A stretch of 64,000 bases of DNA, from NCBI GenBank assembly GCA_000004695.1, contig CM000153.2, positions 3,232,001 through 3,296,000 of the forward strand, given 5' to 3'. Origin of the DNA: Dictyostelium discoideum (Eukaryota). A model generated the notes under the pieces. It saw only the letters and a list, made by a program, of their open reading frames with translations, was not told where the DNA came from and made no database searches. The first letter of the stretch is position 1. Each line of letters starts with the position of its first letter. A program made the translations under genes and the position numbers. This document shows, in pieces, positions 27,648 through 58,287 of the stretch.

Positions 27648-29800
27648 TTAACCATCAATATAATGAAATTCTTCAGCCCCACCACCTTGTTTTTGTAAAT
27701 TTAAAGTTGAAAATGATAAAGTTAATAAACCTAAATTATTTGTACTTCCATTATTAAGAGTATTATTATTATTATTAAAATTATTTGAAACACTATTATC
27801 ACTAATACATTTTAAAGGAGGTACATATGTATTTGAAATTGGAACATTTGCTTCTAAGAAATCTAAAATAAAACTAAAGGAAGGTCTTTCTTCAGGTGAT
27901 TTTTTCCAACACATTTCAATTAATTTTCCAAGATTTTCCCACATTGGATCCATTGGTTGAGGCATTGGTGGTCTATAATTTTCATAAGCTGCCAAATGAG
28001 CCATTTTCAAAGGTTGTAAATTTTGATTTGGTTGTTCACCAGTTATAATACACCAAACCAATAAACCAAATGAATAGACATCAGCCTTTGGTGTATAAAG
28101 TTCACCAATGAATACTTCTGGTGCTTGATAGCAAAGATGACCAACGGTTGAAGTCATTTCAAAGCCTTGCTCCTTACTCAAGCCAAAATCAGCCACTTTT
28201 GCAATGGTTAAACTTTCATCCAATAAGATATTCTTTGTTGATAAATCTCTATGAAGTATTGGATTTGGTTTCCAATCATGTAGATAAAACATGCCACGTG
28301 CTATTGAGATTGCCATATTCCAAGCCAATATTGGATTTTGTTTAATTAAAAAGTAACGATCAGTCAATAACCTATCCAAACTACCACCACCCATATACTC
28401 TGTAACTATACCATTCAAATTGGTTTCACTACAAACACCCAAGAATTGAAGTACATTTGGGTGTCTTAGAATACTTAGAATTGCGACTTCCTTTAGGAAC
28501 ACATTCTCCTCTTTATTTCCATCAGTATTTCTAAATGAATTTCTATGTAAAATTTTCACTGCAACCACAGCACCCTTCCAAACAGCCTTTCTAACCTCTC
28601 CAAAATAACCCTCACCTATGACTTGACCAAATTTAAACTCGTTGAATCTAATGTAAAATGCTGACAATTGCAATGCTGTAGTTGCACCCTCACCACTTGT
28701 ACTAATTGATTCTCTACCAAATAAACTTGTATACTCTTGGAAATTAGTTAACAATGGTAAAAACTCACCTCTTGCTCTTAACAAATTTGTATCGTTACCA
28801 CAAGTTCTAAATAACAATGGTCCATATGAGAATGAATAAATAATTGCAGCAATACCTAAAAAACAATAACCAGCATCAACATCCAATATATTCAATAATG
28901 CACCAACTGATGAAATACAATTATATCCCATCAAAAACAATAACCATATTCTACCTGTTGGTCTTAAAAATGATCTCTTTATTGTCATACCTAAAACTAT
29001 CGTATAAACTACCAATGATGCAACTGTAATCGCTAATGATGTATATTCATCTTGAAACATAAATGTTTGACAATCATTTTTTTTACACATTGTTTGATCA
29101 TCAAAAAATGATGCCAACTAAAATAATAAATTTATATTAATATTTATTTTATAATTAATAAATATATTATAATATATGTATATATACAACTTACAGTAGT
29201 ACAACAAATAATTAAATATAATAAAGTACAAGAATAAAATGAACGTCTTGCAGAGAATCTATCATCTTCTTTACCATATAGGAAAACTAATACCCAATTA
29301 TCAGTGACAATATGACCTGTACCAACGATAATTACGAATGCTGGATATGCTAAAGAATTTGGTGGTAAAAATAATAGTAATAAACCTTCGAATGCTAACC
29401 ATAAACTAACGAATAATGTATACTTGAAATAAGTTGAATTTATAATTCTTGGATGATCAATTGATATACCGAAATTCTTATCCCATAGTGTATCTTGTGA
29501 TATTTTTACACCACTTCTATTTAACCCATTTGAACTATTAATTGATATAATGTCATTATTCGATGAACCATTCCCATTTCCATTACCATTATTATTATTG
29601 CTACTCTTTTGTAAATATGTATAACTACGTTGAAGTCGGAATAAAAGATAAAGTGCTGAAAATATATATCCTAATGCCATAGAATCAACCATTGTGTTAA
29701 ACATAATTGCACCATCTCCTTCACCTGCTAATGGTATTGATCGATTGAATAAATATGTACAAAACCCACATTGATTAATTGAAACACATGATGTGTCCAT
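27648..29800 (-). CDS. Multi-pass (about 7 TM) membrane domain fused to a C-terminal TKL-type protein kinase. Exons 29800..29195 and 29117..27648.
   Basis: Exon 1 starts at ATG 29800 and encodes 4 hydrophobic helices. It ends at ..LIICCTT|GTAAGT. The tattattttag acceptor opens exon 2 at 29117, which the ORF track shows as a TTG 'M'. Exon 2 encodes 3 more TM helices and then a complete kinase domain: GEGYFGEVRKAVWKGAVVAVK (GxGxxG and the VAVK lysine), HRDLSTKNILLD, DFGLSK, APE and the C-lobe. The phase-0 junction is consistent. Confidence 0.75.
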
Positions 29801-33230: not shown

Positions 33231-33642
33231 TTTTTATTTTTTTTTTTTTAATTTATAAATTTGTGTGTGTAGGGTGTTTTTGGTTGTTGGTTTTTTATTA
33301 CTTTTTTTTTTTTTTTTGAGAAATCAATTCCAAGTGATGAAATAGTTAACAGGTAGTTATTGATTGTTGTTTTTTTTTTTTTGGTTTTTGAAAAAATTAA
33401 AAGAATAAAAAGATTTATATATATATATTATGAAAATTATATAATAATACGATCGTTTTTATCTAATATTTGTTTAAAAAAAAAAAAAGAGAAAAAAAAA
33501 AAATTTGTAAAAAAAAAAGAACGAGCGAGGAAAAAAAAAAATTAAATAAAAAATAAATCAAAAAAAAATAAATTTTTACGTTTTTTTTCTTTTTTTTTTT
33601 TATTTTTATTTTTATTTTTTTTTTTTATTTATTTTTATTTTT

Positions 33643-34467: not shown

Positions 34468-34470
<3 letters not shown>

Positions 34471-35151
34471 ATAATGAATGAAATATCATCAAAAGAAGTT
34501 TCAAGTGTAAATAAAACCATGCAAGATGCAGATTATGCAGTAGTTGCCAAATGGATTATACCAGTGGTGCCAGAGAATACAGTTTATGAAAATCATTGTT
34601 TAGTAGTTAAGGATGAAAAGATATTGGATATTATTAGATTCAGTGATTTAGAGCAAAGATATAATGTGAAGAATGTAATAGATTTAAAAGAGATGAATTC
34701 CGACACAAGTTCATCAATAAGTTCAACCTCTGAATATATATTAGCACCTGGTTTCATCAATATGCATACTCACAGTGCCATGTCATTATTGAGGGGTTAC
34801 GCTGACGACGTTTCATTACATGATTGGTTAACAAAATTCATTTGGCCTGCTGAAGCACAACATGTTGGTGAAGAATTTGTTAAAGTTGGTACGGAATTAG
34901 CATGTTTAGAAATGATTAAAACCGGTACCACCTGTTGTAATGATATGTACTATTATCCAGAAGTCTCTGCTCAAGTCGTTGAACAATTTGGTATGAGAGC
35001 TACATTAGCCGCTCCAATCATTAAATTCCCAACAGTTTATGCTCAATCAGAACAAGAATACATTGAAAAAGGTATTCAATTAATTGAAAAATATAAAGAT
35101 CATTCTAAAATTAAAATTTCATTAGGTCCACATGCTGTTTATACAAGTAAT

Positions 35152-35183
<32 letters not shown>

Positions 35184-36010
35184 ATAATATATATATATTT
35201 TTAAAAGTATTAATACTTTTATAATTTAAAATTTATATAGTTACAGATGAAGCATATTTAAAAGTTAAAGAATTATCAGAAAAATATGGAGTTAAAATTC
35301 ATACACATTTACATGAAACTACTCATGAAGTTTCAGAAGAGGTTAAGGTTAGTGGTAAGAGACCAATTGAGAGATTGAGAGATTTGGGAGTATTATCATC
35401 ATCATTGATTGCAGCTCATATGACACAATTAACAAGTGAAGATTTAGATTTGACAGCAAAGAGTGGTATTAATGTTGTACATTGTCCAGAATCAAATTTA
35501 AAGTTGGGTGTTAAAGGTATTTCACCAGTTCATAAACTTTTAAAACAAGGTGTAAACGTTTCAGTTGGTACTGATTCTGCCGCTAGTAATGATGATTTAG
35601 ATATGTTGGGTGAATTACGTACTGCAGCTTACATTGATAAACTCTCTGCAAATACTCATTCAATTGAAGGTGGTGAACCTGTAACACCATCATATAAGAT
35701 TTTGTCAATGGCAACTATTAACGGTGCAAAGGCATTGGGTATCGATGATAAAGTTGGTTCACTTCAAATTGGTAAATTTGCAGATTTCATCGCTGTCAAA
35801 GTTTCAAGTCATCCAGTCTATGATCCAATCTCTCATTTAGTTTATGTTGGTACTAATCATGTCACTGATGTTTGGGTTGCTGGTAAACAATTATTAAGAA
35901 ATTCAAAATTAACAACTGTAAATGAAAATCAAGTTAAATCAAGAGTATTAGAATTCTCACAAAAAATTCATGCTTCTCGTCCAAAAACAAGTTTAACTGT
36001 TATCTCTTAA
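34468..36010 (+). CDS. Metal-dependent amidohydrolase of the ATZ/TRZ family, resembling 5-methylthioadenosine/S-adenosylhomocysteine deaminase. Exons 34468..35146 and 35241..36010.
   Basis: ..ILAPGFINMHTHSAMSLLRGYADDVSLHDWLTKFIWPAEAQ.. carries the HxH metal ligands. It continues ..LACLEMIKTGTTCCNDMYYY..GPHAVYT|ITDEAYLKVKELSEKYGVKIHTHLHETTHEV..HCPESNLKLG..VSVGTDSAASNDDLDML.., collinear with MtaD/SsnA-type deaminases. The intron has a ACAA|GTAATT donor and a tttatatag acceptor. The exon-2 'M' in the ORF track is a TTG codon. Confidence 0.75.
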
Positions 36011-36239
36011 AAAAAAAAAAAAAAAAAAAAAATATAAAAAATAAAAATAAAAAAATAATAATAATAAAAATAAAAATAATAAAAAAAAAAAAATACAAAA
36101 TACAAAAATACAAACACATTTAGTTTTTTTTTTAATTTATTTTTAAATAATTAAAGGATTTTTATTTTAGATGATAAATTAATTTATTTATCTACTATTA
36201 AAAAATATGAATATTAATAATTAATTACAAATTTACTAT

Positions 36240-36279
<40 letters not shown>

Positions 36280-36346
36280 TTTAATAAATTAGATGTTTAT
36301 TATCACCATCGATTTATTAATATATTTTTATTTTTATATTAAATTT

Positions 36347-36393
<47 letters not shown>

Positions 36394-36956
36394 AATGTTT
36401 TTTTTTTTTTTTTTCTAAACTATCAAAAATTATCATCGTCATCTTAATCTTATACATCATGAAGATGGTATATCGCAATATGAAAATTAAAAAAATAAAC
36501 AAGTATATAAAAAAAAAAAAAAAGTTTATGAAAAAAAGAAAAAAGAGCACCACTAAAAAAACTTTACTAACAATAAAAATTTATTTATTGTTATTAATTT
36601 CAATTGTATTATCTGAGTATTTTTATCCTCATTTAGCCAATAAAAAATGGAAAGTTTTTTTTTTTTTTTTTTTTTAATTAAACAATTGAAAAAAATTAGT
36701 GCATTTGCATGTGAATTTTTTATTATTAAATTATTTTTTTGTTTTTTTAATATAATTTTATCATCTTTTCTTTTTTTTTTTTTTTTTTTGTAAAAAAATT
36801 AGTAAATATATATTGTAAATACAAATTTGTATTCTTTTATAACTCATGACAGAACTTCAGTCAATGTTTTTATTCAATATCAGATGACATTGGATTATGG
36901 GATTTTTTGATTTGTTAGTTAACAAATTGTTAAATTAATCAATTTTGTTAATGGGT

Positions 36957-36999
<43 letters not shown>

Positions 37000-37225
37000 T
37001 TGTTTCAAAAAAAAAGGTATAAATAAAAACCTTTTCTTTTATTTATTTATTTATTTATTTATTTTAAATTTTTTTTAATCTTTATTTTTAATTTCAATTA
37101 CTTTTTTTTTTTTTTTTTTTAATATTAAAATAAATAATTATTATTTGAAACTGATAGGAGCTTTCTCCACCCCTTTATATTTTTCAATTAAAAACACAAT
37201 GGTGATTGGAGATAAATATTGATAA

Positions 37226-37257
<32 letters not shown>

Positions 37258-37899
37258 TAAAATAAGATAATAAAAAAAAAAAAAAAAAAGAAAAAGTTTA
37301 ATATGTGGTTTTTTAATTGTTAATGATTTTTTATTTTGATACGATTTTATCGATGATACAAAAAACAAATTATAGATTTTGATTGGTAAAAATATTATTG
37401 TTGTTAATAATGTTGTCATTTTTGTTGTTGTTTAAGGTTTTTATATAAAAATTTGTTCATATTTCTGTAATTTGGATTTTAAAAAATAATGTATACAAGA
37501 AAGTTTATCAAATACCACCTTTTACCCACAGCTTTTATTAAAATGAGTTATTGTTATTTTCAAATAAAAAATTTATACAATTCAATAAAAAATACTATTT
37601 TAATATGAATTTATCCCTTAGTTTTTATCATTTTATCATTTTTTTTTTTTTTTTTTTTTTTTTATACATTTTATAAAATTTTTAATTTATTTCTTTCAAA
37701 TTTCTTTGTTTTTATGATTTTGAAATATAAAAGGTACATAATATATATATATAAAAAAAAAAACAATTTTATTATATTAAAATTCTCTTCTTTTTTTGGT
37801 GGTGGGTAAAAGTAAATTTTTTTTGTTTTTCTTTCTTTGTTTTCTTTATTTTTATTTTATTATTTTTTTTTTTTAATTTGAAATGGGGTATAAACCACT

Positions 37900-38340
37900 A
37901 ATTGAAAGATAACAACCCACTCACTCACACTTCACAATTCCAAAAACACACACATACTATTCCCACCAACAAAACCACTCTCTCTCTCTATAATGATATC
38001 TGTACAAATACACTCTGGGAGTAGTAGTTAAGATATTACTAATAAATAGATACATTGTATATAATGAGATAGAGTTAAATGAATGGTTTATATAACAATA
38101 AATCAAAATAAATAAAGAAACAAAAATAAAAGAAAAAAAAAAAAAAAAAAAAAGGAAAATACATACACATACACACACATACACACACACATATTATATT
38201 AAACACAATCAATAAGGTTGGTATAAAAATTTTAAAATAAAGTAACCACTACAACAACAATAACTATTACTACTAAAACCTCATAATATTTTTATAAAAA
38301 CACACTAAACAAACAACACACCAACACACCTTTTAACTTT
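37900..38340. repeat. C/A-rich low-complexity island with (CA)n/(ACACAT)n and CTCT runs inside a 3.8-kb gene-poor region.
   Basis: ..cccactcactcacacttcacaattccaaaaacacacacatactattcccaccaacaaaaccactctctctctc.. and ..catacacatacacacacatacacacacacat.. show strong strand asymmetry, C/A on the plus strand. This is unlike the rest of the window. Confidence 0.6.
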
Positions 38341-38469
38341 ATGTTTCATTATATCATTATCATTATTAAAATTAAATTACTTTCCTTTTTTATTATTTGT
38401 AGTTGGAAAAAGATTTTTTTAATTTTTTATTTTTTTAATAATTTGGATATCCAAAGATTATATAAATTA

Positions 38470-38509
<40 letters not shown>

Positions 38510-38784
38510 ATACTTTTCAAACAAAAAATAATAAAATAAATAAATAAAAAAAAATAATTATATAATTATAATAATTAAAATTATAAAATAATTTATAATT
38601 ATTATTTTTAAATTTTTTAAAAAAATAAATAAATATATATATATGTGTACAATAGTAAAAAAAAAAAAAAAAAATTTAATTAATATATTCATTTAAAATA
38701 AATTCAAAAAATAATTAAACGCAAGAAATCGTGTACTCTCTCCTGAACCTATAAATCTTTTTTTAAAAAAATAAATATATAAAA

Positions 38785-39141
38785 ATGACAATTATAAGTA
38801 TGTACAATTAAAAAATGTTTTAATCAAAACATGTATGAATTTTTTTTTTTTTAATAGATTGACTAATCTATTATCTTTTATTTTTTTTTTTTTTATAATT
38901 TTTTATAATTTTTTAATTTTGTTATATTTTAGATAGTTTACAATCATTCTTAAATTTTAAAAAAACCAATAATATAAATTGTTCATCATCCCTTTATATA
39001 GATTGTAAAAATAATAATATTGGTTATAGTAATAATAATAATAATAATAAAATATATGGAACAAATTTTATAGCTGGTTTCGATATATGGATAATTGATA
39101 ATGGTAAAACTTTTGAACCAAATGCAGGACTTAAATTGTAA
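38785..39141 (+). CDS. Candidate unannotated small spliced gene of about 73 aa. Exons 38785..38797 and 38933..39141.
   Basis: aaaaATGACAATTATAA|GTATGT (ATG immediately followed by a canonical donor, phase 1) joins the acceptor gttatattttag at 38931/32. This gives MTII-N-SLQSFLNFKKTNNINCSSSLYIDCKNNNIGYSNNNNNNKIYGTNFIAGFDIWIIDNGKTFEPNAGLKL*. The open frame of 74 codons is unusually long for 80% AT DNA, and the sequence is non-repetitive and protein-like. There is no homology call. Confidence 0.3.
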
Positions 39142-39277
39142 TTCTAATTAATTGTTATATTATAAATTTTTAAAAAAAAAAATGTCATTTTAGAATAAAG
39201 AAAAAAAATAATTTTTTAAACATATATTTTAAATAAATAAAATATATCTACCCCAAAAAAAAAAAAAAAAAAAAAAA

Positions 39278-39321
<44 letters not shown>

Positions 39322-39862
39322 AAAAAGATATAAATAAAAATAAAACAAATAATAAAAAAAAAGGTAATTCTTTTTTTTTAAATATTATAAATTTACAAAA
39401 TATAAAATTACTTGTTTTTTTTGTTTTTAATTAATCCTTTTTTTTTTATATATAGTTTTTTAATTTAAGTATTTTTAAAAGATTGTGTTTTTGGACGTTG
39501 TGAAATGTAATTATTATGTTTTTGATGTTACTCACCTGCAATATGAAATTGAACATAGCCAAATTACATAAACATATAGATTGGCTAACAAATAATAATA
39601 ACCAACCAAATACTTTGAATTTTTCAATCTGATTTTATTTTATTTTTTTAAAATATTACAAAAATTATAATGAATTGTTTTTTATTTTTTTTATTTTTTT
39701 TATTTTTTTTTAACATGTCACTAGTTATTTTTTTAATCCATATAATTTTATTTCAATACAAAAATAAGTTTTGTCAAACCACCATATTTTAACACAAAAA
39801 AAAAAAAAAAAAAGAAAAAAAAAGAAATAAATATTAAAAAGAAGATAGTTTTTATTATAGTT

Positions 39863-40183
39863 TTAATCAAATTGAGTTGTACAATTTATCATTGATTTAA
39901 TTTCAGGTGATAATTTAGATTTATTATATGATGGTGATAAAGATAAATGAATAACAGATGTTGGTATATTATCAATAGATAAATCTTGAGAAAAATCTTT
40001 TGAAAATGTGATTGAAGTTACAGAATTTGGGAATGTATTTGGAAGTATTTTTTGATTGAATGAATTTTTAAATTTTATAGTTGAAATTCCGTATGGAAGT
40101 GCTCCAGCTTCAATAATTGAATTAAATTCTGACCCAAATATTAAAATTCTAAGACAACTTTTTTTATTCTGATCGTCATTAGT

Positions 40184-43740: not shown

Positions 43741-43859
43741 AAGAATTAAAATGACATAGTGATTATTACATGTAAAAATTTTCAAAAAAAATAAAATAAA
43801 AGACATCAACAAAATACTAATTATTTGGAAAGATTTTATAAAAAACTACATGGTCATGA

Positions 43860-44240
43860 CATGAAGCAAATGATTTGCGTACACCGTACAAGATGCAAAC
43901 AATATCAAAAAGTTGGAAATTAGTTTACCGCTACCACCACCAGAGAATTCAGAGTTTGAAACTTGTTAAGAAAGTGATAAAGATGGTGCTATGGTTTCCG
44001 TTGTCTCTCATAAAAATTTTGATGGTTGATGCACCTTCTCAAGCCCTACTGTTTCAATCAATCAAAAAAAGCAGGTATCTTTTAGATAATTAATTCAACA
44101 TTGAATATAAAAGAGATAAATTTAGCATATTGTTTTTTATTTTAAGGGGATAGGCCCCATTTTCAAAAAATGGCGGGGAACCTATGACCCTGTGTAAACC
44201 AAAGAATTCATTTAGTTTTTTGATTTAAAAATTAAAAAGA
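43860..44240. other. Moderately GC-rich island of about 380 bp with no convincing ORF. It contains GGGGATAGGCCCCATTTTCAAAAAATGGCGGGGAACCTATGACCCTGTGTAAACC. It may be a TE remnant or an ncRNA.
   Basis: Composition differs from the flanks. The 77-codon ORF 43875..44093 has no recognisable domain. The motif CCCTGT(G)TAA recurs in the 18350-18500 element. Confidence 0.25.
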
Positions 44241-45200
44241 ATAATAAAAAAAATAAAAATAAAATAAATAAAAAAAAGGTAATAACTATTTAATTAAATT
44301 ATTTATTCTGTCCTCTCATTTATCTTTTTTTTTAAAAAATAAAATTAGTAAACGAAAATAAAAAATCAATTTATTCCCTATTTGTTCATCAATATATATT
44401 TATATAAAATTTATTCCCTACTTGTTCTCCAAAATAAAAAAACAATTACAAAAAATGAATAATTAAATTCCTAAAATTTTTGGTTGAATATTCGAGTTTT
44501 ACGATTTCCCGAGGATTTAATATTAAAAAAAAAAAACAATTCATGACCAGCCCTAATCATAAAAAAACCACTAAAACATGCAAAGATTGGAAAAAAAAAA
44601 AAATAAAAATAAAAAAAAAAAACAAAATTAAAATAAATAAATAAAAGACACTTTCATTATAATTATAATTTTATTTTATTTTTTTTTATTTTGTTTTTTA
44701 ATTTTAATTTTTAGATATTGATAAAAACACAAAAGAAAAAAAAAAAAAATATTTTCGTTTTTATTTTCTTTTATTTTTTTTTTTAGTATTATTTAAAAAA
44801 AAAAAAAAAAATAATTTGTTTTATTTTTTTAATTTTTTTTTTTATTTTTGTTTTTTTTTTTCATTTTTTATTTATTTTTTTTTATTCACTATCTATTATG
44901 AATAGCAGAAATTATTCGATTGAAACCTCTTCAAATAAAATAATATACTTTTTTTTATTTTTTTTTTATTTAATTATTTTTTTTTTTAATTTCAAAAAAT
45001 AAAATATCCTCTCGTTGTTCTTCAAAATAAAAAATAAAATATAAAAAAAATAAATAAAAAAAATAATAATAATAAATAAAAAAATAAAAACTTTATTTAA
45101 TTTTATTTAATTTTTTTTTTTTTTTTTTTTTTCAACCAAAAACTAAATTTGTTTTTTATATTAAGACTGACTTAAATTGAGATTATTTTTATGGAAATAA

Positions 45201-45828
45201 TTATTCAGTTGGATAAATTTCAAAATATTCAATGGCATACTTATGATGAATGATTTATTTTTAAATTAGTACAACTTTTTTTAATCAATGTAAAAATAGT
45301 GAATAATATAATTATTATAACTTACTTTTCTAAGTTCTTCACGTGTAATACATTTGTCATCATCAGAATCCACATCTTCAAACATTGAGTTGGCCAAGAC
45401 TTTAGCTTGAGCTTCATTTGAACCACAAGTAACGAAAAATTGTCTGGCCTCATCCCAAGTAATTTTATTATCTTTATTTGAATCAGCCTATAAAATTTTA
45501 TTTATTTTTTTATTTTTAAAAATATTAAATTTCAATTACTATGTTTTTATGGGAAAGATTAATATTTATATATTTAATATATATATATTACATTAAAAAT
45601 AGTATCAACGAATTTTTTTAAACAATCTTCAGCTTTAATAATATAATCTACAAGTAATGCAGCTTTAACTTCATTAACCGAAAGTTTTCCATCTTTGTCA
45701 TGATCAAATAGTTCAAATAATGAATTGGTTGCCAAAGTTGGGTTTGGGTATTTGCATTTCTTGTACATGTCATTAATTTCTTTCTTTGAAAATTGGTTAT
45801 CACCATTTTTATCAAATGATTTAATCAT
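45201..45828 (-). CDS. EF-hand calcium-binding protein, calmodulin-like. Exons 45828..45592, 45487..45326, 45239..45201.
   Basis: The EF loops are [36 protein letters not shown] and [14 protein letters not shown]. Donors are AAT|GTAATA and AAA|GTAAGT. Acceptors are ttttatag and catcataag. Exon lengths 237 and 162 are in frame. The short last exon, [12 protein letters not shown], is the least certain part. Confidence 0.55.
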
Positions 45829-46322
45829 TTCATTCTTTAATTTAAAAATATAAAATAAATTTTTTTTTTTTTTTTTTTTTTTTTTAAACGGTTCTTATAT
45901 TTTTAAGAACCCACACCAAAAATAAAAAATATTATAATTCCCATTTTTTTTTTTTTTATTTAAATTATTTTTTCCAAATTATATTCATTTTCTAATTTTT
46001 TACCCATTTAAAACAGTTTTCAAATAAGGTAAGAGTGTTTAAACTTTTTTTTTTTTTTATTTTTTTTTTTTTTATTTTTTTTATTTCCTTATATTGATTT
46101 TGTTTTTTTAAATTTAATTATTATTTTTTTTACAAATTGATTTTTTTTATTATTTTATTTATAATTATGTTGAATTTATGATTTTATATAATTTTATAAT
46201 AACAATCTTAACTTCAACACTTTAAATCTAAGCACAAAACCCAAAGTTAGAACTCCAGCTACCTAACAGTTATATATATATTAAAAAAAAAAATAATTAG
46301 AATTTAATTATTAATATAAATA

Positions 46323-46733
46323 TTATATAGATATATTATATTTTTTGATCAAAAAAAAAATAATAATAATAGTAATAATAATAATAATAATAAAATATAT
46401 GATACATACTAAAATCTCTTTTGAACTTATTACTCTTAAAAATACAGATACTAAATATTGAACTCTATTTGAATTTTCTAAATTCTCTTCCACTATTGGT
46501 TTAAATCCTTTGATTTTAAATGCTAATAGTCTACCATCAAAATTTGGTTGTGCAACTGATGATTCCAATACAATATAAGGTATGTAAAATATTGTTGGCT
46601 CATCATTTTTAGTTTCTTCACCATTATAACTAAAAATTTCAAAGTTATCAACACTGATTCCATAAATTCTCAAAAATGCAAGACTTACAAAGTTATCAAC
46701 ACTATTTGTCATTAAAACTGAACTCAGTTGCAA
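46323..46733 (-). CDS. Low-confidence hypothetical ORF. It has a possible GTATGT donor after ..SSKEIL and a short hydrophobic terminal exon around 46264..46199.
   Basis: The 136-codon ORF has a protein-like middle (PTIFYIPYIVLESSVAQPNFDGRLLAFKIKGFKPIVEENLENSNRVQYLVSVFLRV). Its first 35 codons are read across two copies of the 23-bp tandem motif (SVDNFVSL / ISVDNFEIF). The true start is therefore doubtful. Confidence 0.25.
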   Translation of the reverse strand: MQLSSVLMTNSVDNFVSLAFLRIYGISVDNFEIFSYNGEETKNDEPTIFYIPYIVLESSVAQPNFDGRLLAFKIKGFKPIVEENLENSNRVQYLVSVFLRVISSKEILVCIIYFIIIIIITIIIIFFLIKKYNISI

Positions 46734-46908
46734 ATTTCATTTAACCAAAAACATACAAAGTTATCAACACTATTTGTCATTAAAACTGTACTGAGTTTGT
46801 TTCAAATTTCAATTTACAAAAGACATACAAAGTTATCAACACTATTTGCCCAATTTGTAAATTTAAGGGAAAGGGACACACAAAGTTATCAACACTATTT
46901 GTCCTTTG
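46686..46908. repeat. Four tandem copies, with a period of about 53-72 bp, of the conserved 23-bp motif ACAAAGTTATCAACACTATTTG(T/C)C. Its reverse complement, GTTGATAACTT, contains a GATA-type core TGATAA.
   Basis: Motif starts are at 46688, 46756, 46828 and 46881. Copies 1 and 2 share an about 60-bp extended unit (..cattaaaactg(a/t)act(c/g)agtt..). The array overlaps the 5' end of ORF 46323..46733 on the minus strand. Confidence 0.7.
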
Positions 46909-47051
46909 AAAAAAAAATTAATTTCTAAATTAAATAAAATAAAGTTAAAGTTTTCATTTAAAGTTTAAATTTTTTATTTTTTTATTTTTATTTACATTAT
47001 TTATTTATACAATTATATTTTTATTTTTATTTATACAATTTTATTTTTATT

Positions 47052-47333
47052 TTACAAGTAGATAGTTGAATATTCATCGTCATCGTAATAAAGGTCAGAA
47101 TCATATGTTGATTCAACACTTGACAAACTATTTATAGAATCTGATAGAGATTGTATTGTTGTTTTAAATGATAAATTATCCTTTCTTAATAATTCCATTT
47201 CTAATTTTAATTTTTTAATTTCTTGAAAAATTTTATCCTCTTGTTTTTCATTATTTTCTTTCATTGAATCAATTTCTTTATTAATAGAATGGAAATCATT
47301 TTTTAAAGATGTGATTACTTCTTTTAATGACAT
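47052..47333 (-). CDS. Possible small coiled-coil protein of 93 aa. Hypothetical.
   Basis: The ORF from ATG 47333 encodes MSLKEVITSLKNDFHSINKEIDSMKENNEKQEDKIFQEIKKLKLEMELLRKDNLSFKTTIQSLSDSINSLSSVESTYDSDLYYDDDEYSTIYL*. This is a heptad-like, charged and non-repetitive composition. It is flanked by (AAT)n and (ATTT)n repeats. There is no homology call. Confidence 0.3.
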   Translation of the reverse strand: MSLKEVITSLKNDFHSINKEIDSMKENNEKQEDKIFQEIKKLKLEMELLRKDNLSFKTTIQSLSDSINSLSSVESTYDSDLYYDDDEYSTIYL

Positions 47334-47355
47334 TATTATTATTATTATAATTATA

Positions 47356-47454
<99 letters not shown>

Positions 47455-47502
47455 GTATAATTTTTTTTATTTATTTATTTTTATTTATTTATTTATTTTT
47501 TT

Positions 47503-47533
<31 letters not shown>

Positions 47534-47816
47534 CAAATTTTAAAATAATAATACAACATGTAACTTTTTTAAGAGTTATTTTTATTTTACAAAATTATTG
47601 AAAAAAAAAAAAAAAACCAACAAAAAAAAAAATAAGAAAAAAAAATAAAATAATAATAAAATGAAATCACTGAATTGTTTCAAATTATTTTTAAAAAAAA
47701 CCCCTACGGTTTTTATTATAATCATTTTGATCAAAATTTTTTTTTTTTTTTTTTTTTTGGAAGTAAAAAACAATAATAATACAACAGAATTGATTTAAAA
47801 TAATCTCTTTTTAAAT

Positions 47817-49308
47817 TTAAAATTTATCAAGATTTTTAATTCTGCCACCCATTTGAATATCAACAGTGGAACCTTGAGGTCTTAATTCAATGTTATTTGT
47901 ATTTTTTTTTGAATTTCCATTCTTCTTCTTTTTAATTAAAACAATGGCAACAACAATAATTGCAATTAGTGCAAGACCACCTAGAATTGGACCAATGATA
48001 ACACCAATATTTGTTTTCTTTTTATTTTCAGAACCACAATCATCGCCATCATAATCTTCAACACATTGGCATTGACCAACTGTAGTATTACATAAACCAC
48101 CATTAAAACATGAAACTGAACAACTAACACCACTACAATCTATACCTTCATAACCTTGAGTGCATGAACATTCACCAACTGTTGTATTACATGAACCACC
48201 ATTTAAACATTGTGGAACTGTACAATCCTTTGTACCACAATTATCACCATAAAAGTCATTAATACATTGACATTGACCAACTGTTGTATTACATGAACCA
48301 CCATTTAAACATGAAACTGAACAACCAATACCACTACAATCTATACCTTCATAACCTTGAGTGCATGAACATTCACCAACTGTAGTATTACATGAACCAC
48401 CATTTAAACATTGTGGAACTGTACAATCCTTTGTATCACAATCATCACCATAAAAGCCATTTATGCATGAACATTCACCAACTGTTGTATTACATGAACC
48501 ACCATTTAAACATGAAACTGAACAACTAATACCACTGCAATCTACACCTTCATAACCTTGAGGACATGAACATTCACCAACTGTAGTATTACATGAACCA
48601 CTATTTAAACATGAAGCTGAACAACTAATACCACTGCAATCCGTACCTTCATAACCTTGAGCGCACGAACATTCACCAACTGTTGTATTACATGAACCAC
48701 CATTTAAACATTGTGGAACTGTACAATCTTTTAATTCACAATAATCACCATAATGATCATTTATACATTGGCAACCAGTGAGTGGATTACAAGTACCCCC
48801 ATTTAAACATTTTGTATCACAATTTGCATTTGGTTGACCAATGAATTTAATTGATTGTACTTGATTACCATATTTCATTAATATAGTTCTATTAAATAGC
48901 TGAGGTGACAATGAAACTGTTATTTTTGGTAAAACATCATTTGCAATTGATTTACTCTCATCACCAAATAATATTAATTCAATTCTAACTCTTGTATTAT
49001 TATTAAATGTTATTGAATATATTGAACTATCGAAACTAGGATCAATAATAAATTGATCTTCATTTGCTGGATTTTCAATTGTTAATGTAACAATTCTAAT
49101 TGCGCATTGTCCAACTTCTGAATTAATATTATTTTCAAATAATTTATAAATTGAGTTTGACATTGGATTTGGTTGAAATAATTTACTAATTATTGAAATT
49201 GAACCAATCGAAGTTTGACCATATATTGTATAAATATCTAAATATGAACCTGTTACTAATATAGATGCTGTCTGATAGAATAGAATTATTTAAAAGTTAA
49301 TAATAATG

Positions 49309-49391
<83 letters not shown>

Positions 49392-50948
49392 TGATTTAAT
49401 ATAATATTACTTACAATATCATCAATACCATCAGAGTTATAATCACCAATATCAATAGCCGCAGCATAGCCATTAATTGACATTTTTGAACAATCACCAA
49501 CTTGATCTTTTAAATAAATTGGATTTGAAGCATAATTTTTATTATTACCATACAAAATGGTGAATGGGATGTCAGTGTTACCACTGAATAAAAAATCTGC
49601 AAATCCATCATTATTTATATCCCCCAATCTAGGAGAAAAAGCCCAGCTATAGATGTTGCCAACAACTGCTATAACCAAACCATCCGATGGATTTAGATTT
49701 ATACTTAATGTTGTTGTTGGTGGATATTCTGTTTTACCCAAACCAAAAAAGCTATATAGTCACCCCCCGAAGTAAGTCTTGTAAGAATCTAAAATTATTT
49801 AATAAAATGTAAAAATAAGTATAATAACAATAAAGAATAATAAAGAATAAGAATAATCAAAAAATAATAAAGAATAAATTACACCAAAATCATTTAGTCC
49901 ATCATTATTAAAATCTCCAAAAGCATTTGGATGAACATTATTATTTGTTGTGCAACCTAAAAAGCTGAAACTGGTACCTTTGACACCATCATAAACTGGG
50001 ATATATGGTGAGGTAAAAGGGCCTCTACTACCATAAATAATATCGATTGCTATCTGTCCCCTATTTATCATTATATCACCAATCCCATCATTATTCATAT
50101 CATAAGGATAAGCCGCATATGAATTGAAATTATTAATTAAAAAACCATTACTCCCATTTAATGTTGAAGGGTCAAATTCAAACTGTGAATTAACTTGAAA
50201 TTTACCACCGTTTATACCAAATATCATATATGAAATTGGTGTTCCTGAAGTTGCATAAGTTCCTATACTTGCAGAGACCTAAAAAAAAAAAAAAAAAAAA
50301 AATATGTGTTAATACCCATGTGAATACCCCTTTTAAAAACAAAATAAAAAAATAAAAAAAATCTGTACCTACAAATAAATCTTTAATTGAGTCACCATTG
50401 AAATCAATGATTGATCTTACAAACCCAAATGCAATATTAGAGGACGAAACGTGAGAAATATAGAAACCATTATTACCATTCACTGTCGAAAAAGTAGAAG
50501 GTGATATAATTTGATCAGTACCATAGATAACACAAAGTTTTCCTGGTATAATATGTAAAAAAAGAGCAATATCGTCAAACCCATCATTATTTATATCACC
50601 AACAGCTATATTATTCATTCGAACAGTAGCATTTAAAAAAATAAAACCATTTGAACCGTTGATCTTTGATATGTCTGTTTGAAAATTAAAATTACTTGCT
50701 AATGGCCCATAAAATACATATAGTCCTTCTGAATTTATAGCATATATCAAATCATCATTACCATCACCGTTCAAGTCTCCATGTGCAATTGAAATTAAAC
50801 TTCTGCCTTCTGTTATTAAAAACCCATTTATTGAATTAATTTGAGAAAATGATGTTGGAAAAATTGAAATTACAACATTGAAATTATAATTTAAAATATA
50901 AAATAAAAATAAAATATAAAAAAAGTTTACCTTATATTTTTCTGTCAT
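47817..50948 (-). CDS. Type I membrane adhesion-like protein with an N-terminal FG-GAP (integrin-alpha-like beta-propeller) repeat region, 8 tandem tenascin-type EGF-like repeats, a TM helix and a short cytoplasmic tail. About 4 exons: 50948..50373, 50278..~49885, ~49751..49415, 49271..47817.
   Basis: FG-GAP/Ca-binding loops recur: GDLNGDGNDDLIYA, GDINNDGFDDIAL, DFNGDSIKDLFVG, DMNNDGIGDIMI, GDFNNDGLNDFG, GDINNDGFADFLF and DYNSDGIDDI. These are followed by 8 copies of CxNGGSCNTTVGECSCxQGYEGxDCSGISCSxSCLN, then IGVIIGPILGGLALIAIIVVAIVLI (TM) and KKKKNGNSKKN... Donors are TTT|GTAGGT and ATT|GTAAGT. Acceptors are tttttttttag and ctattctatcag. The exon 2/3 junction only fits in frame with the non-canonical G|GTGTAA donor and the ctatatag acceptor at 49751, so it is uncertain. 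Confidence 0.7.
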
Positions 50949-51530
50949 TTTTTGTTAAAAAGGTAACTTTTTTTTCTGATTTTGAATTTTATCGAAATGT
51001 ATTAAATGCTTTTTTTTTTTTTTTTTTTTAAAAAAAATAAGGTCCGTTTTCTATTTTTTACACAAACGACGGTTTTTTTTTTTTTTGGCGAAAAAGATAT
51101 TTTTAAAAAATAAAATCTTTTATTTTGATTGAATTTTAAAATAATCACATGATAATTTCTTTAAATTTTAATATTTAAAAAAAAAAAAAAAATAAAAAAA
51201 AACAAAACTTTTTAAAATAATCATTTTAATTTTAAAACAAAAAAAAAAAAATTATATATAACTTTTGAAAATAAAAAAATAATTTTTTTTTTAATAAAAC
51301 CAATTCAAAACATTATTTAAATTAAACCAAGATAAAAAATTTTTAAAATAGATTTCAAATTTTTATAAAATAATATCCAACAATTTTTGACATTCGATCG
51401 TTTGCCAGATTTTCAAATAATATTTTTTTTTTTTTTATTTTTTTTTTTTTATTTGTTTTCTAAAAAATTGGAAAATATCTTCATCCATAAAATTTGTTAT
51501 TTGATTAAATTTAATTACAACTTTATTTAT

Positions 51531-51911
51531 TTATTTACAAATTTTCTTTTTTAATTTTTTTTTTTTTTTTTTTTTATTGATAAAACCTTTACATTTCTTT
51601 AAATAAAAACCATCATCTTCTTCAATTTCTTCAGCCCATTCAAAGATTGCCTCTTCAGAGATAACATCATTTTCATCACAAAAATCTTGAATTTTAAAGA
51701 TAAGATCTACCATACTATCTTCTCTTGAGAATTTAACCAACAATAAAACTGGTAAAATACTTGTTAAACAATCTAAACCATCTCTATCATAAGCGAATTT
51801 CAAACCATTGATTTCTAATTGAATATTCTCTAAAGGTAATTTCTCTATAATACCACGTCTAATTGTATCACCAACTTCACGATGAAATTTAACTGAATCA
51901 GGTTCAATTGG

Positions 51912-52007
<96 letters not shown>

Positions 52008-52217
52008 GTTGTTGTTGTTATTGTTATTGTTACAATTTGAACCTGTCATACAAATTACTTGAACACCTGGAAGATCATGCCATCTTGATGATTGAATATA
52101 TTCTTTAATTTGTGATGCATGTGCACAACAAAATACAAATATTTGTTGTACTCCTGATGCTGCTAAAAATTCTAATGTATAATCTAATAATGGTATATTA
52201 ACTAATGGTAATAATGT
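51531..52217 (-). CDS. eIF2B-epsilon-like mini-ORF. An N-terminal nucleotidyl-transferase-fold fragment of about 55 aa is joined through a roughly 40-residue poly-Asn tract directly to a C-terminal W2 (eIF4G/eIF5/eIF2Be) domain. The catalytic core and LbH regions are absent. It may be a pseudogene, an internally deleted paralogue, or a collapsed assembly.
   Basis: From the acceptor tttaaatag at 52219/18 the open frame reads [62 protein letters not shown]-(N)[49 protein letters not shown]..[24 protein letters not shown]. Both ends align to human EIF2B5 ([40 protein letters not shown]..SKW and [43 protein letters not shown]). No upstream coding exon could be found in the 190 bp before the divergent 52415 gene. 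Confidence 0.45.
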
Positions 52218-52315
52218 CTATTTAAAAAAAAAAAATAATATATTAGCATTTTAATCTTGAATTTCACCCCTCTAATTGGGTTGAGTGTTTTTGGATTTTA
52301 ATTTGAATTCCCGAG

Positions 52316-52385
<70 letters not shown>

Positions 52386-52414
52386 GCACACACAAACACT
52401 CTCATAAATGGAGA

Positions 52415-53075
52415 ATGATTCAAAACGCATTTTTATATTTAAAGATAATCATTCTGATAGTAATAACAAATAATGTAAACTCACAATTAATTGATATTTA
52501 TTTCAGTAATAGTTATGATGATTTAAATGGTAATGGCACCATATCAAACCCATATCAAAATTTATGTTTACTTAATCAAATTTTAAATTCAAATAATAAT
52601 AATAATAATAATAACGATAATATAAATAGTTCAATAATAATAATAAATATTGATTATGGTGATTACAATTTAAATTGTTCATCATTTTTAATAATAAATA
52701 ACTTTAATAATATTTCATTCATACCTTATAAATCAAATAATAATAATAATAATAATGAAATTGTAAATTTAAATAATATAACCACATTAAAGATACTTAA
52801 TTCAAATTTAGGATTTGATGGGTTAATAACAATAATAACGAATCAAATAGAGATTTCATATAGTAGAATCATATTCAACAATGGATCAAAACTTTATTTC
52901 AACATAGAAAGATATGAACATTCAACACACTTTCAATGCTCAAATATTACATTTTCAAATTCAACATTTCTTTTAAAAAGAGATGAAAACTACCTTGTAT
53001 CAGAATCTAGTTCATTCGAATTTTTAGATTCATCTTTAGAAAATATATCTTTAATATTTAATAATAACCTATATT

Positions 53076-53153
<78 letters not shown>

Positions 53154-56100
53154 GTATTGGTAATAGTAGTAGAATTAGTAGTGGTAGTAGTAGTAGTAGT
53201 TATTTTTTATCAATGTTTAATTGTAATGCAACATTGATTTATTTCAGGATGAATGGATTTGGAAATGTTTTAATTAATAATTCATTATTAAATGATATAT
53301 CAATTAGAATAGAAGGTAGTTTTATAGTTAATATTAATAGTTCAGATATTTATGCAACTTCATTAGATCCACTTTTCATGGTGGCGAATATGGATATAGA
53401 AAGATCACTTTTAAATATAATAAATTCAAATATTTACTATTTAAATGATTCTGAGTATCCTTTAGCAATTATAGTTAAAAATAGTTTACTAAATATAAGT
53501 GGTTGTAATATAAATGGAAACTTTAAAAGAATTTATCCTCAAGCATTAATAAATGTTGCTGGTACTCCTTCATCATCATCATCAAATGATAGTAGTAGTG
53601 GTAGTAGTAGTAGTAGTAGTTGTATAGATAATGAAGCTTTATTAATTTTAGAGAATTCAAAGATTTCAAATTTTAATTCACCAAATAAATTTATTTTTTC
53701 AATTTGTTCAACTATTTTTATAAATAATATTACATTTTATTCAAATTCATACTCAACATTTTTATATATTAATAGTAGTAGTATTGTTAATTTAGATAAT
53801 ATTATAATGAAATGTGATGATATGAATAGATTTGAATATTTATTTTTAGCACTACCATCATCGTCATCATCATCATCATCAAATATAACAATTAATAATG
53901 TTTATATGAGTTGTGTTGGTATGTTTGAATTTGAAAATTGTAGAATTGAAATTTCAAATTTTAGTTTAGAATCATTTTCAAAACCTTCAACTATTAGGCT
54001 AAGTCATTCAAGTGAATTAATAATTAGGAATGGTGTTTTTATTTCAAGTATATTCAAAATTAAATCTTTTATGTTTTATTTAGAGCAGAATAGTAGGTTG
54101 GTCATTATAAATTGTCAATTTATAGATAGCACTACCAATATTATTTTCTCAAGAAATTCAGAAACAGTTTTACAATATTCAAATTTTTCAAATATAATAC
54201 CATATGGTGGTGGCAGTGGTGGTGATACATTTAATTCAAATTCAATTTTCTACTTTTCAAAAAGTTTATTACAAATTGAAAATTGTAATTTTAATCAAAC
54301 TCAAACTTTATCATCCCTATTTTATATGGAATTTTCAGAGAATGTAATTATAAAATCAACAAGATTTGAAAGAGTTGGTGATACTATTTTAAAAAGTTAC
54401 TTTTCAAACAACAATATTATCATTGATGATATTTATGTAGTGAATTGTAGTACTACACAGAGTGAGTTATTCTTTTTAACGTTTAATGAAAATGTTGTAA
54501 TTGGAAATTCAACTTTTAAAAATAATCATGGTATTGGTTATACTTTATTTACTATTAATGGTTGTTTACATTTTGAAATTAGTAAAACAATGATTTCAGA
54601 TAACTCTTTCTCATCAATTTTTAAAGAATCAAATTCAAATGCCATTCTACTAAATTCAATAATCTCAAATGGTAATACAGTTGATGATTTTTATAAATCT
54701 TCAAATTGTTCTTCCCTTTCAATTGATACTTTTAATTTTACAAATAATTATGTTAATTCAATATTCACAATAAATAAAATCACATCCAAAATTCAACTTT
54801 CAAATATTATAATTACAAATAATTATTTCACTAAAATAATTACAAAATTTAATCAATCTATAGTTGAAATTAATAATTTAACATTTATAGACAACATATT
54901 AATTGCACCTCAAAAATATGATTTGGATGGTGGTGGTGGTAGTAGTGGAGGTGGTGGTGGTGGTGGTGGATTATTCTTTGAAAATTGTCAAGTTATTTCT
55001 AAAGGTTTACAAATTTTAAATAATGAAATTTCAGTTAATTTAATTAATTTAAATGATTCTATATTATTAATTTCAGATGGTTTATTTGAAAATAATCAAA
55101 TTTCATCAAATTTTATTCATTCTGATTTTTCAACTGTTGCTTTATTTAATACAAAGGTATTGCATAATCAAGGTGGTGATGGTGGTGGTTCAACTTTATT
55201 TGTTATTCATAATTCAAATATTAATATAAGTGATTGTGAATTCTCTTTTAATAATCTTTATAAAAATGGTATGGGTTCAATTATTAATTTTGATAAATAT
55301 TTAAATAAATTTACTTATTTTCAAATTGAAAATACTTTATTTTCTTTCAATATTGCTAAATTTGGTCAATTATACTTTTCAGGTTATCCAAATGATCAAG
55401 ATGCATTTACAAATAGTAAAAATACATTTTCAAATAATACATTAATTTCAAATCATGCATCTTCACAAGGTGGTGCTATCTTTACAGAAAATTTCATTTT
55501 CTCTTTAAATATTTCAAATATTTTAAATTCAAATCATTTCGATAATAATACTTCATTATGTGGTGATAATTTCTCTTCAAGTATGTATTATTGTTTTTAT
55601 TTTTATTTTTATTTTTATTTTTAATAATTCTAATTTTTTTTTATTTTTTTTTATTAGGTTTAAAAGAAATTATTTTCATAGAAACTAATGGTACATTTTT
55701 AGTAAATGGAGTTGGAACTATTATCAATTATAATGCAGTGGATTTTTATAATAATGTATTCACCACATTATCTTCACCAATTCAAATTAGTATTACAAGT
55801 TTATCAAATAATGAAACACTGGTATTCACTGAAATGATTATTGGTGGTAAAGGAAGTTTTTTACATACTTTTATAGGACCACTTTATGAAAGATTTAAAA
55901 TTGAATTAAATTCCATACCATACTATTCAAATGTTTATTTAACACTTGGTGGATGTTTACCATTTCAATATATGAATAATTTAACATGTGAATATTGTCC
56001 AATAGGTTCATCATATAGTAATTCAATAGGTCAATGTTTTAAATGTAATCCTAATGCAGTGACATGTGTTGGTTCATTTGTAAATGTAAATACTGGATAT

Positions 56101-57240
56101 TATATGATCGATAATGAAATCTCAATGGTTGAACGATGTGCAAACGATATGTGTCTCTCAAATAATCAATGTCAATTTAAATATAGTTCAGGAGATTTAT
56201 GTTTCAGTTGTTTAGATCCAGACTCATCAACACCAACATTCATAGCAGCTAAACATGGAATTAATTGTTGTTCCCAATTTAAAGTATGGTTAATTGTACC
56301 ATTATTATTATTATATTTAGTTTCAGCATTAGTTCTCTCAATAATCAAATTAAATTTATTCACAACAATAATTGGACCAATAATAGTATTCCTTCAAATT
56401 AATTCAGTAGTTTTCTTTTCTTATAATGGTATTTACATTTTAGCATTCTTTAGAGTATCATTAGATATTTTAGATGGAATTTGTATTTTCAAAGGATTAA
56501 ATCATGGAGATAAAACATTAATTATATTATTAATTATAATAATAATGTTTTTAATTTCTTCAAGTGATTGGCTTCCTTTATGGTTATTTAGAAAATTAAA
56601 TTCAAATTTTAAATTATACAATTATTTAAAAAGAAATTTAAAAAAGAATAGAAATTTAAAGAAATCATCATCAACAACTCAACTTAATTATTTTATTAGA
56701 TCAAGATGGCAATTATTTCAAATCTTTATTATTCCATTAATATTCAATTCATTTACATTGATAATACCAAAGAAAATTAAAGATCAAACATTATTATTAG
56801 TAGATTTTTCAATTTTATTTGGATCATGGCAGAGTATAATTCAAATTTTCATTTCAGTTTTAGTAATAATATCAGCAATGGTATTTTTAATATTAAAATA
56901 TCAATTTTACAGCAAGGGTAAACTAAAGTTGTGGAGTTTCATTATAATTTTAAGATCAGTTTTATTTTCAATTCTATCAATTACATCAATTTTTAGCGAT
57001 AATGAATTTTATATGCCATCGATTATTCTAATTCAAATAGTCTATTCAAGTATTTACTTGTATTTGAAACCTTTAAAAGAAAAAATTGATAATAGTAATT
57101 TTATAAATTTAATTCAAATAATTATCTTTCTTTTCGCAGATTCAAGATTATTCCAACCAATTTCTCCCCATTATCTTGGCTTAATTTTAACTATTTTAAT
57201 TATTATTTTAAATTTATTTATAATAATAAAAACCTTTTAA
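52415..57240 (+). CDS. Giant membrane protein, copy 1, about 1580 aa. It has a signal peptide, about 900 aa of parallel beta-helix (PbH1 / chlamydial Pmp-like) repeats, a Gly-rich hinge, a Cys-rich module and about 10 TM helices. Exons 52415..55580 and 55658..57240.
   Basis: MIQNAFLYLKIIILIVITNNVNSQ is a signal peptide. The body has repeated N-x-x-x-x-x-S/N-x-I-x-F beta-helix rungs (..NVYMSCVGMFEFENCRIEISNFSLES.., ..VIINCQFIDSTTNIIFSRNSETVLQYSNFSNI..). The hinge is GGGGSSGGGGGGGG. The Cys-rich module is CEYCPIGSSYSNSIGQCFKCNPNAVTCVGS..CANDMCLSNNQCQFKYSSGDLCFSCLDPDSS..INCC. A multi-TM block follows (WLIVPLLLLYLVSALVLSII.. and more). The intron at 55581..55657 has a TCAA|GTATGT donor and a ttattag acceptor, with phase 1 consistent. 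Confidence 0.8.
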
Positions 57241-57260
57241 ATTGTATTTGGCGGTTGCAG

Positions 57261-57296
<36 letters not shown>

Positions 57297-57381
57297 CAAA
57301 ATCTTTTTTTACTTTTTTTTTTTTTTTAATAAAAATCTTATTTTAAAAATAGTACTTTTAAAACAAATAAAAAGAAAGAAA

Positions 57382-57413
<32 letters not shown>

Positions 57414-57562
57414 TACGTGATCGCTGATTGGCTGGGCAAAAAATTAAAAAAAATCAAAATAAAAATGAAAATAAAAATGAAAATTCTCAAAAAAAAAAAA
57501 AAAAAAAATTGAAAACATAAACATTTTTATTCAAACCAAATTATTAGTTACATAAATGGAGA

Positions 57563-58256
57563 ATGATACATAATTTATATTTAAAGATAATCATTCTTTT
57601 ATTAATAATAAATAATAATGTAAACTCACAAATAATTGATATTTATTTCAGTAATAGTTATGGTGATTTAAATGGTAATGGCACCATATCAAACCCATAT
57701 CAAAATTTATGTTTACTTAATCAAATTTTAAATTCAAATAATAATAATAATAACGATAATAACGATAATAAAAATAATTCAATAATAATAATAAATATTG
57801 ATTATGGTGATTACAATTTAAATTGTTCATCATTTTTAATAATAAATAACTTTAATAATATTTCATTCATACCTTATAATTCAAATAATAATAATAATAA
57901 TAATAATGGAATTGTAAATTTAAATAATTTAACCACATTAAAGATACTTAATTCAAATGTTAAATTCGATGGGTTAATTAAAATCACAATAACAATTATA
58001 GAAAATGAAACGGAAATTATAAATAGTGATATATTATTGAATAATGGGGTAACTCTTTATTTTATCAAAAATTACCAACTAACCAACAGTGAATTTCAAT
58101 GTTCAAGTATTAAATTTTCAAATTCAAAATTTATTTCAAATTGGTCACAAAATGATGTATCTATTTATTTTAATTCAGATTCCAGCTTATTTGAATTTCA
58201 AAATTCTTTAGTAGAAAATGTATTTTTAAAATTTAATAATATAAAAAATTGTAGTA

Positions 58257-58287
<31 letters not shown>

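Follow-up and report, generated by a model that had tools for sequence, protein, structure and literature searches.

Evidence that DDB_G0285469 of Dictyostelium discoideum, a 73-residue orphan with a 13-nt first exon, is a real spliced protein-coding gene

Orphan small proteins of dictyostelids are a descriptive class and not a family, and membership in the class predicts no mechanism. DDB_G0285469 of Dictyostelium discoideum AX4 resembles the other members in being short, rich in asparagine, domain-less, fast-evolving, developmentally regulated and without annotated homologues outside a narrow clade. The gene was published at chr4:3270785-3271141 (+), a span of 357 bp (Rosengarten et al. 2017, PMC5295588 File S7), which corresponds to positions 38785-39141 of the 64,000-nucleotide stretch of AX4 DNA analyzed here and referred to below as the window. 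In the same file, the neighboring gene DDB_G0285463 is at chr4:3259648-3261800 (-), matching window ORFs at 27648-29800 and confirming the coordinate offset between the two numbering systems and placing the window at chr4:3232001-3296000.

A first-pass annotation of the window had proposed these bases as a candidate unannotated small spliced gene. However, an exact-sequence look-up of the 73-aa product returned EAL64572.1 / XP_638073.1 / UniProt Q54N70, hypothetical protein DDB_G0285469 of D. discoideum AX4, with identity from the first residue to the last; a similar exact look-up in the contig collection gave no exact match. The product and the exon and intron coordinates agree without any difference, and the mini-gene is the known annotated gene DDB_G0285469 at chr4:3270785-3271141 (+). 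The description of the gene as unannotated was incorrect, whereas the two-exon coding model was right to the base and is upheld by conservation, codon usage and published RNA-seq. The model is, then, a rediscovery of an ordinary, already known orphan gene. In our estimate, DDB_G0285469 is genuinely transcribed, spliced and protein-coding with a probability of roughly 0.85.

The start codon of DDB_G0285469 is the ATG at 38785-38787 (+), read directly from the sequence, with the model assembled by script. Exon 1 (38785..38797, +) consists of 13 nt, ATGACAATTATAA; the ATG is followed by 10 nt, and the exon codes for Met-Thr-Ile-Ile before ending on the first base of the Asn5 codon. The intron (38798..38932, +) is 135 nt long with 11% GC, has a GTATGT donor at 38798-38803 and an acceptor AG at 38931-38932, and ends in ...TATTTTAG, giving the acceptor context TTTTAG. 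Exon 2 (38933..39141, +) carries codons 5-73 and the TAA stop at 39139-39141. After splicing, the CDS measures 222 nt and is translated into MTIINSLQSFLNFKKTNNINCSSSLYIDCKNNNIGYSNNNNNNKIYGTNFIAGFDIWIIDNGKTFEPNAGLKL, a product of 73 aa that includes the peptide IYGTNFIAGFDIWIIDNGK and has the C-terminal end ...YGTNFIAGFDIWIIDNGKTFEPNAGLKL. The ATG, the 13-nt exon, the GTATGT donor, the acceptor at 38931/32 and the 73-aa product had each been given exactly in the first-pass annotation, and the 74-codon open frame that it described is also present, from stop to stop at 38917-39138. This frame around exon 2 contains no ATG, GTG or TTG, so the start codon must come from an upstream exon; having no start codon inside it, the frame is also missing from the mechanical ORF list. 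Without splicing, the frame of the ATG reaches a stop after 8 codons in both AX4 and Dictyostelium firmibasis. Under the proposed mechanism, the 135-nt intron would be removed from the mRNA 13 nt after the ATG start, Met-Thr-Ile-Ile would be joined to a 69-codon exon without a start codon of its own, and a 73-residue protein would be made and would be functional.

Splicing of the predicted 135-nt intron has indirect support from the conserved GT..AG boundaries, a branch-like motif, and an intron that is far more diverged than the exons. The motif, TTGACTAATCT at 38859-38869 (+), may serve as the branch site and is conserved at 11/11 positions in D. firmibasis. GTA[AT]GT has a single plus-strand occurrence, at 38798, in the 3.85-kb gap between the flanking genes (36011-39862), and the splice-site signal is in this respect stronger than chance would give. 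On the other side of the coding region, the probable 3' UTR would cover 39142..39272 (+), with AATAAA at 39194-39199 and 39232-39241, ending near a genomic A-run that begins at approximately 39255. Directly 3' of the stop, ATTGTTATATTATAA and ATGTCATTT are kept in all three genomes compared, namely AX4, D. firmibasis and GCA_054859355.1, a second assembly labelled D. discoideum.

Published RNA-seq bears directly on this locus. With strand-specific, rRNA-depleted developmental libraries, 813 sense and 5 antisense reads were assigned to DDB_G0285469 (PMC5295588 File S7). The composite locus had a strand specificity of 0.994, a value calculated just for loci above a minimum-expression filter, and sense reads left no part of it uncovered (PMC5295588). 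DDB_G0285469 is transcribed on the coding strand. An antisense model, CUFF_3590_1, was also reported at chr4:3270929-3271272, equal to window positions 38929-39272 (-), where it overlaps exon 2 and the 3' UTR, and the authors suspect that many antisense models of this type are strand-switching artefacts (PMC5295588). Since there were 813 sense reads versus 5 antisense reads, CUFF_3590_1 probably mirrors the sense exon 2 and UTR and is most likely such an artefact. If it is, its limits mirror exon 2 plus approximately 130 nt of 3' UTR, and its start at 38929, only 4 nt from the acceptor, was counted as indirect support for removal of the intron.

DDB_G0285469 is also listed among genes up-regulated after high-cAMP treatment. 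It is present twice in the 'suspension_UP' sheet of Additional file 7 (Rosengarten et al. 2015, PMC4403905), in lists that correspond by column count to UP_Hr08_rapid (8 h) and UP_Hr10_gradual (10 h), and the suspension experiment included 300 uM cAMP every 2 h from 6 h (PMC4403905). The gene was absent from the filter_UP lists of the same file and was not found in the supplements of the cell-type RNA-seq paper (PMC6198379). The literature search yielded no main-text mention of the DDB_G0285469 id. The suspension listings may reflect membership in a post-aggregative, high-cAMP-induced gene set.

The first-pass annotation had argued that chance would very rarely yield an open frame of 74 codons at the AT content of this DNA. 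That argument did not survive: in the gap at 36011-39862, six frames run for 74 codons or more from stop to stop, the longest for 96 codons and most of them poly-F/K, and first-order Markov simulations of the gap produced at least one frame of that size in 40% of runs. ORF length is therefore not valid evidence in such AT-rich DNA. We scored codon usage by a log-likelihood ratio trained on the 11 window ORFs of at least 300 aa against the trinucleotide frequencies of the gap. DDB_G0285469 scored 0.359 per codon, within the range of true window genes (0.452 +/- 0.172), whereas the 18 other gap frames of at least 50 codons scored between -0.68 and +0.04. The codon usage of DDB_G0285469 is gene-like, beyond what chance would give.

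The flanking genes converge on the gap, with the amidohydrolase gene (+) ending at 36010 and the FNIP-repeat gene (-) ending at 39863. Because each neighbor faces the gap with its 3' end, no annotated gene there other than DDB_G0285469 needs a promoter. Conserved CA-rich non-coding blocks, with no strand assigned, are located 330-920 bp upstream of the ATG at approximately 37862-37978, 37994-38100, 38194-38228, 38258-38316 and 38321-38460. These blocks are 82-97% identical to D. firmibasis, which is better than the ORF itself, so conservation alone is no proof of coding. CA-rich runs in the upstream region (37880-38335) occur at about 8 times the average density of the window and are conserved. 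In the 15-kb comparison, leaving aside coding sequence of the large genes, identity reached 90% or more per 80 nt only at 37862-37961, 38321-38457 and 33556-33635; a fourth stretch of at least 90% identity, 35226-35385, spans an intron/exon junction of the amidohydrolase gene. The short stretch at 33556-33635 is outside long ORFs, between a NOG1-like gene and the amidohydrolase gene. Microsatellites of the (CT)n and (CA)n types lie between the conserved blocks at 37979-37990 and 38158-38195 and differ in length by 12-24 nt between D. discoideum and D. firmibasis.

We rejected the possibility of coding exons within the upstream blocks, since indels in the blocks do not come in multiples of 3 and since the ORF at 38341-38547 has a TGG>TAG change in D. 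firmibasis. Rfam gave no match in 35900-39950 at E<=1, ARAGORN found no tRNA in the window, and the blocks folded no better than shuffles (z = +1.0 and -0.9), the inverted repeats in them being A-run/T-run pairings only. The blocks may be a cis-regulatory region (enhancer or promoter) or 5' leader of DDB_G0285469, or they may belong to an unannotated non-coding transcript.

A rival reading is that the annotated model is incomplete. The transcript could start several hundred bases upstream, near a conserved TATAAAA at approximately 38222 followed by an A/C-rich leader at 38245-38335, and could include extra 5' exons or upstream ORFs, so that the true product or its regulation would differ from the 73-aa model. 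The blocks at 38194-38460 do resemble a TATA element and then an A/C-rich leader, and the TATA-like element at 38750-38756 is just 35 nt from the ATG, in a position that is not conserved in D. firmibasis. However, the indels and the TGG>TAG change leave no conserved ORF in the upstream blocks, and the plus strand has no further strong donor. The PMC5295588 supplements that were searched contained no lncRNA model or extended model with an end in chr4:3269900-3270499, and both exon 1 and the context of its ATG show perfect conservation. We therefore regard an incomplete model as unlikely and favor the annotated two-exon gene.

The two-exon gene was compared with its counterpart in GCA_054859355.1, an assembly that was reached via the FNIP neighbor and that is clearly diverged from AX4 at this locus despite its D. 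discoideum label. Over the stretch L002 12287-15934 (JBTAPG010000079.1), it is 7-11% off AX4 in non-coding DNA and 5% in the FNIP protein, and the assembly may represent a distinct lineage. Between AX4 and GCA_054859355.1, the exons together had 2/222 mismatches (K15Q and K72R) and 0 indels, compared to 15/130 mismatches and 4 indel events in the intron, 3/45 mismatches and 1 indel event in the 5' flank, and 7/73 mismatches and 2 indel events in the 3' flank (10/118 mismatches for the flanks combined). Exon 1 was identical (13/13); both mismatches were in exon 2 (2/209) and both were non-synonymous. The exons were 13-fold less diverged than the intron, and the difference between the exons and the intron plus flanks was significant (Fisher's exact test, p = 1e-5). 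In the identity profile, exon 2 (0.99-1.00) formed the longest near-perfect run in the gap, with two isolated upstream windows also at 0.98-0.99. In the annotation of GCA_054859355.1, the interval from the FNIP gene to the amidohydrolase gene is empty, yet the DNA of the assembly contains the DDB_G0285469 copy; this newer D. discoideum-labelled annotation misses the gene.

The single annotated homologue is RB653_000705 of D. firmibasis (GCA_036169595.1, CM069766.1), a protein of 72 aa (E = 6.5e-23) that is 65-71% identical to the DDB_G0285469 protein. The D. firmibasis locus (L001) is syntenic, with the small gene between the amidohydrolase gene and the FNIP-repeat gene and with Glrx-like and MIX23 genes beyond the latter. 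RB653_000705 shares with DDB_G0285469 the 13-nt exon 1 (13/13 bases, L001 10001-10013), a single GT..AG intron, the stop position, the N-terminus and the C-terminal motif. It differs in its donor (GTAGGT rather than GTATGT), its acceptor (ACAG), the length of its intron (155 nt rather than 135 nt) and its last three residues, and Cys21 is not conserved. Apart from the 11/11 putative branch motif, the intron is poorly conserved. Exon 2 has 35 mismatches in 206 aligned bases and one 3-nt indel, which is in an AAT run.

For scale, protein identity to D. firmibasis is 94-95% for the amidohydrolase and 70% for the FNIP gene, and DDB_G0285469, at 61-71%, evolves at about the rate of the neighboring FNIP-repeat gene. 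The amidohydrolase gene (34468-36010, +) is MTA/SAH-deaminase-like, and the matches listed for it are 47-55% identical and only partly named. The named ones are gammaproteobacterial, Methylococcales-type, generic proteobacterial and metagenome MTA/SAH deaminases, with no dictyostelid among the matches listed, a pattern that may reflect an artefact of the search or hint at bacterial ancestry. Elsewhere in the window, the D. firmibasis locus lacks any equivalent of 43.8-52.4 kb (43800-62400 compared to L001 14775-20374), and the AX4 segments at approximately 52.4-56.2 kb and 57.5-61.2 kb both match one D. firmibasis gene (L001 16513-20374), which suggests a tandem duplication and an insertion in the D. 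discoideum lineage. The FNIP gene was also tried as a query for reaching other dictyostelid loci, but the D. purpureum match was a non-syntenic paralogue.

For the D. firmibasis annotation, MAKER drew homology evidence from the D. discoideum proteome (PMC11193728). The RB653_000705 model is for this reason not independent evidence, and the tests of constraint were done on the DNA itself. The first-pass annotation had looked to closely related species for conservation of the ORF, and the frame is intact in both D. firmibasis and GCA_054859355.1, with neither copy containing a stop or frameshift. Divergence from D. firmibasis was 24.9% in the non-coding columns of the gap, where the alignment opened 1.98 gaps per 100 nt, and 16.0% in the CDS. 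Under a neutral model with the non-coding substitution spectrum, the probability of no premature stop after 35 substitutions was 0.10, and that of no frameshifting indel in 222 nt was 0.06. The 21 amino acid replacements were more conservative than expected, with a mean BLOSUM62 score of +0.19 versus -0.75 in neutral simulations (P = 0.004-0.007). The dN/dS ratio, from few sites, was 0.54 for the whole CDS and 0.37 for its final 30 codons, and the differences were spread over the codon positions as 12/11/12. The flat spread and the dN/dS of 0.54 indicate that constraint on the ORF is weak. Taken together, these comparisons indicate that the frame has been kept under purifying selection, with weak constraint.

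The product of DDB_G0285469 has 73 residues, a mass of 8.2 kDa, a pI of 8.7 and 23% Asn. The Kyte-Doolittle peak was 0.42 over 19 residues, so the product lacks a membrane segment and shows no convincing signal peptide, and we regard it as a soluble protein. Of its three parts, the N-terminus (MTIINSLQSF) is conserved, the Asn-rich middle evolves fast and the C-terminal portion of approximately 28 residues is better conserved; the conserved C-terminal segment in exon 2 is IYGxNxIAGFDIWIxDNGKTxEPxAG. Only one Cys is conserved between DDB_G0285469 and D. firmibasis. By hmmscan at E<=10, no Pfam family was found for the product (P0001), and P0002 matched only DUF6864 (E = 0.14). The AlphaFold2 model of the product had a mean pLDDT of 45.6. 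No paralogues were found in the window by tblastn, and a 14-residue match inside the FNIP gene was dismissed (E = 0.09-0.75).

Searched with a HMMER profile, a library of 1.84 billion representative proteins yielded the D. firmibasis protein, one bacterial surface protein of 1283 aa (P0003) and nothing more. P0003 contains 13 Ig-like repeats of PF16403 (Bact_surface_Ig-like, formerly DUF5011), and each repeat matches residues 45-72 of the DDB_G0285469 product (IYGTNFIAGFDIWIIDNGKTFEPNAGLK), which are 37-43% identical to the first 27-28 residues of the repeats. The match covers approximately 28 of 71 domain positions before the DDB_G0285469 protein ends, and PF16403 had no hmmscan match in P0001 or P0002, even at E<=10. 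The E-value of 5e-6 from the library search sums the contributions of near-identical repeats, whereas the pairwise E-value for a single stretch is 0.001. With 28/71 positions covered, E = 0.001 and one protein in 1.84 billion, kinship with PF16403 was rejected and the hit taken as a repeat-inflated chance match. DDB_G0285469 can thus be classed as an orphan, confined among annotated proteins to D. discoideum and D. firmibasis.

In a rival reading, the locus might be transcribed and spliced with an RNA that is effectively non-coding, or with an ORF that is translated without function, and the conservation would then reflect short divergence and constraint at the RNA or DNA level. Such a scenario would account for the 12/11/12 spread and the dN/dS of 0.54, for neighboring non-coding blocks that are conserved more than the ORF, and for a product with no Pfam family and no fold in the AlphaFold2 model. 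It would also account for the absence of both Q54N70 and DDB_G0285469 from the accessible part of the supplements of a 2026 life-cycle proteome paper (PMC12821622), although this absence is weak evidence because small proteins are frequently missed. However, the codon usage of the ORF is gene-like, unlike that of every other frame in the gap, and the amino acid replacements are significantly conservative. Neither copy has a stop or frameshift, despite approximately 1.3 frameshifting indels per 100 nt in the surrounding non-coding DNA of the D. firmibasis alignment, and the ATG, the frame through the splice and the stop position have all been kept. We judge a non-coding or functionless ORF to be quite improbable, and a protein-coding DDB_G0285469 remains our preferred reading.

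The idea that there is no gene here, and that a predictor made one from a chance ORF that was then copied to D. firmibasis by homology annotation, could draw on an ORF length that is not unusual in the gap, a domain-less product named "hypothetical protein", a D. firmibasis annotation that leaned on D. discoideum proteins (PMC11193728) and the uncalled gene in GCA_054859355.1, but it is very improbable and already largely refuted by the published RNA-seq, with 813 sense reads in full coverage (PMC5295588) and differential expression (PMC4403905), and it also fails against the 13-fold lower divergence of the exons relative to the intron in the comparison of AX4 with GCA_054859355.1 (p = 1e-5), the unique plus-strand donor in the gap, the gene-like codon usage, and converging neighbors that would leave a 3.85-kb gap without a transcription unit.

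For a protein-coding DDB_G0285469, the upstream blocks offer a possible route of regulation. GBF binds CA-rich or G-box elements in the promoters of Dictyostelium genes that are induced by cAMP after aggregation. GBF-type regulation through the CA-rich blocks would fit the listing of the gene among those raised in cAMP-treated suspension, and DDB_G0285469 would then be expressed as part of the post-aggregative, high-cAMP-induced set, perhaps driven by these blocks. A more specific proposal is that DDB_G0285469 is a recently born micro-protein gene, possibly de novo, of the D. discoideum and D. firmibasis clade, with a high-cAMP post-aggregative switch-on via the CA-rich module at 37862-38460, whose sequence conservation exceeds that of all other non-coding DNA in about 15 kb. 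We offer this proposal tentatively, as a doubtful one on balance.

The biological weight of DDB_G0285469 is small, as its structure was already in the annotation. The outcome does indicate that a tool-free reader is able to recover a correct two-exon micro-gene, with a first exon of 13 nt, from raw AT-rich sequence. For D. discoideum, the upstream CA-rich blocks are a testable candidate regulatory module, and the evidence gathered here independently strengthens the case for a "hypothetical" 73-aa orphan as a real, constrained and developmentally regulated gene.
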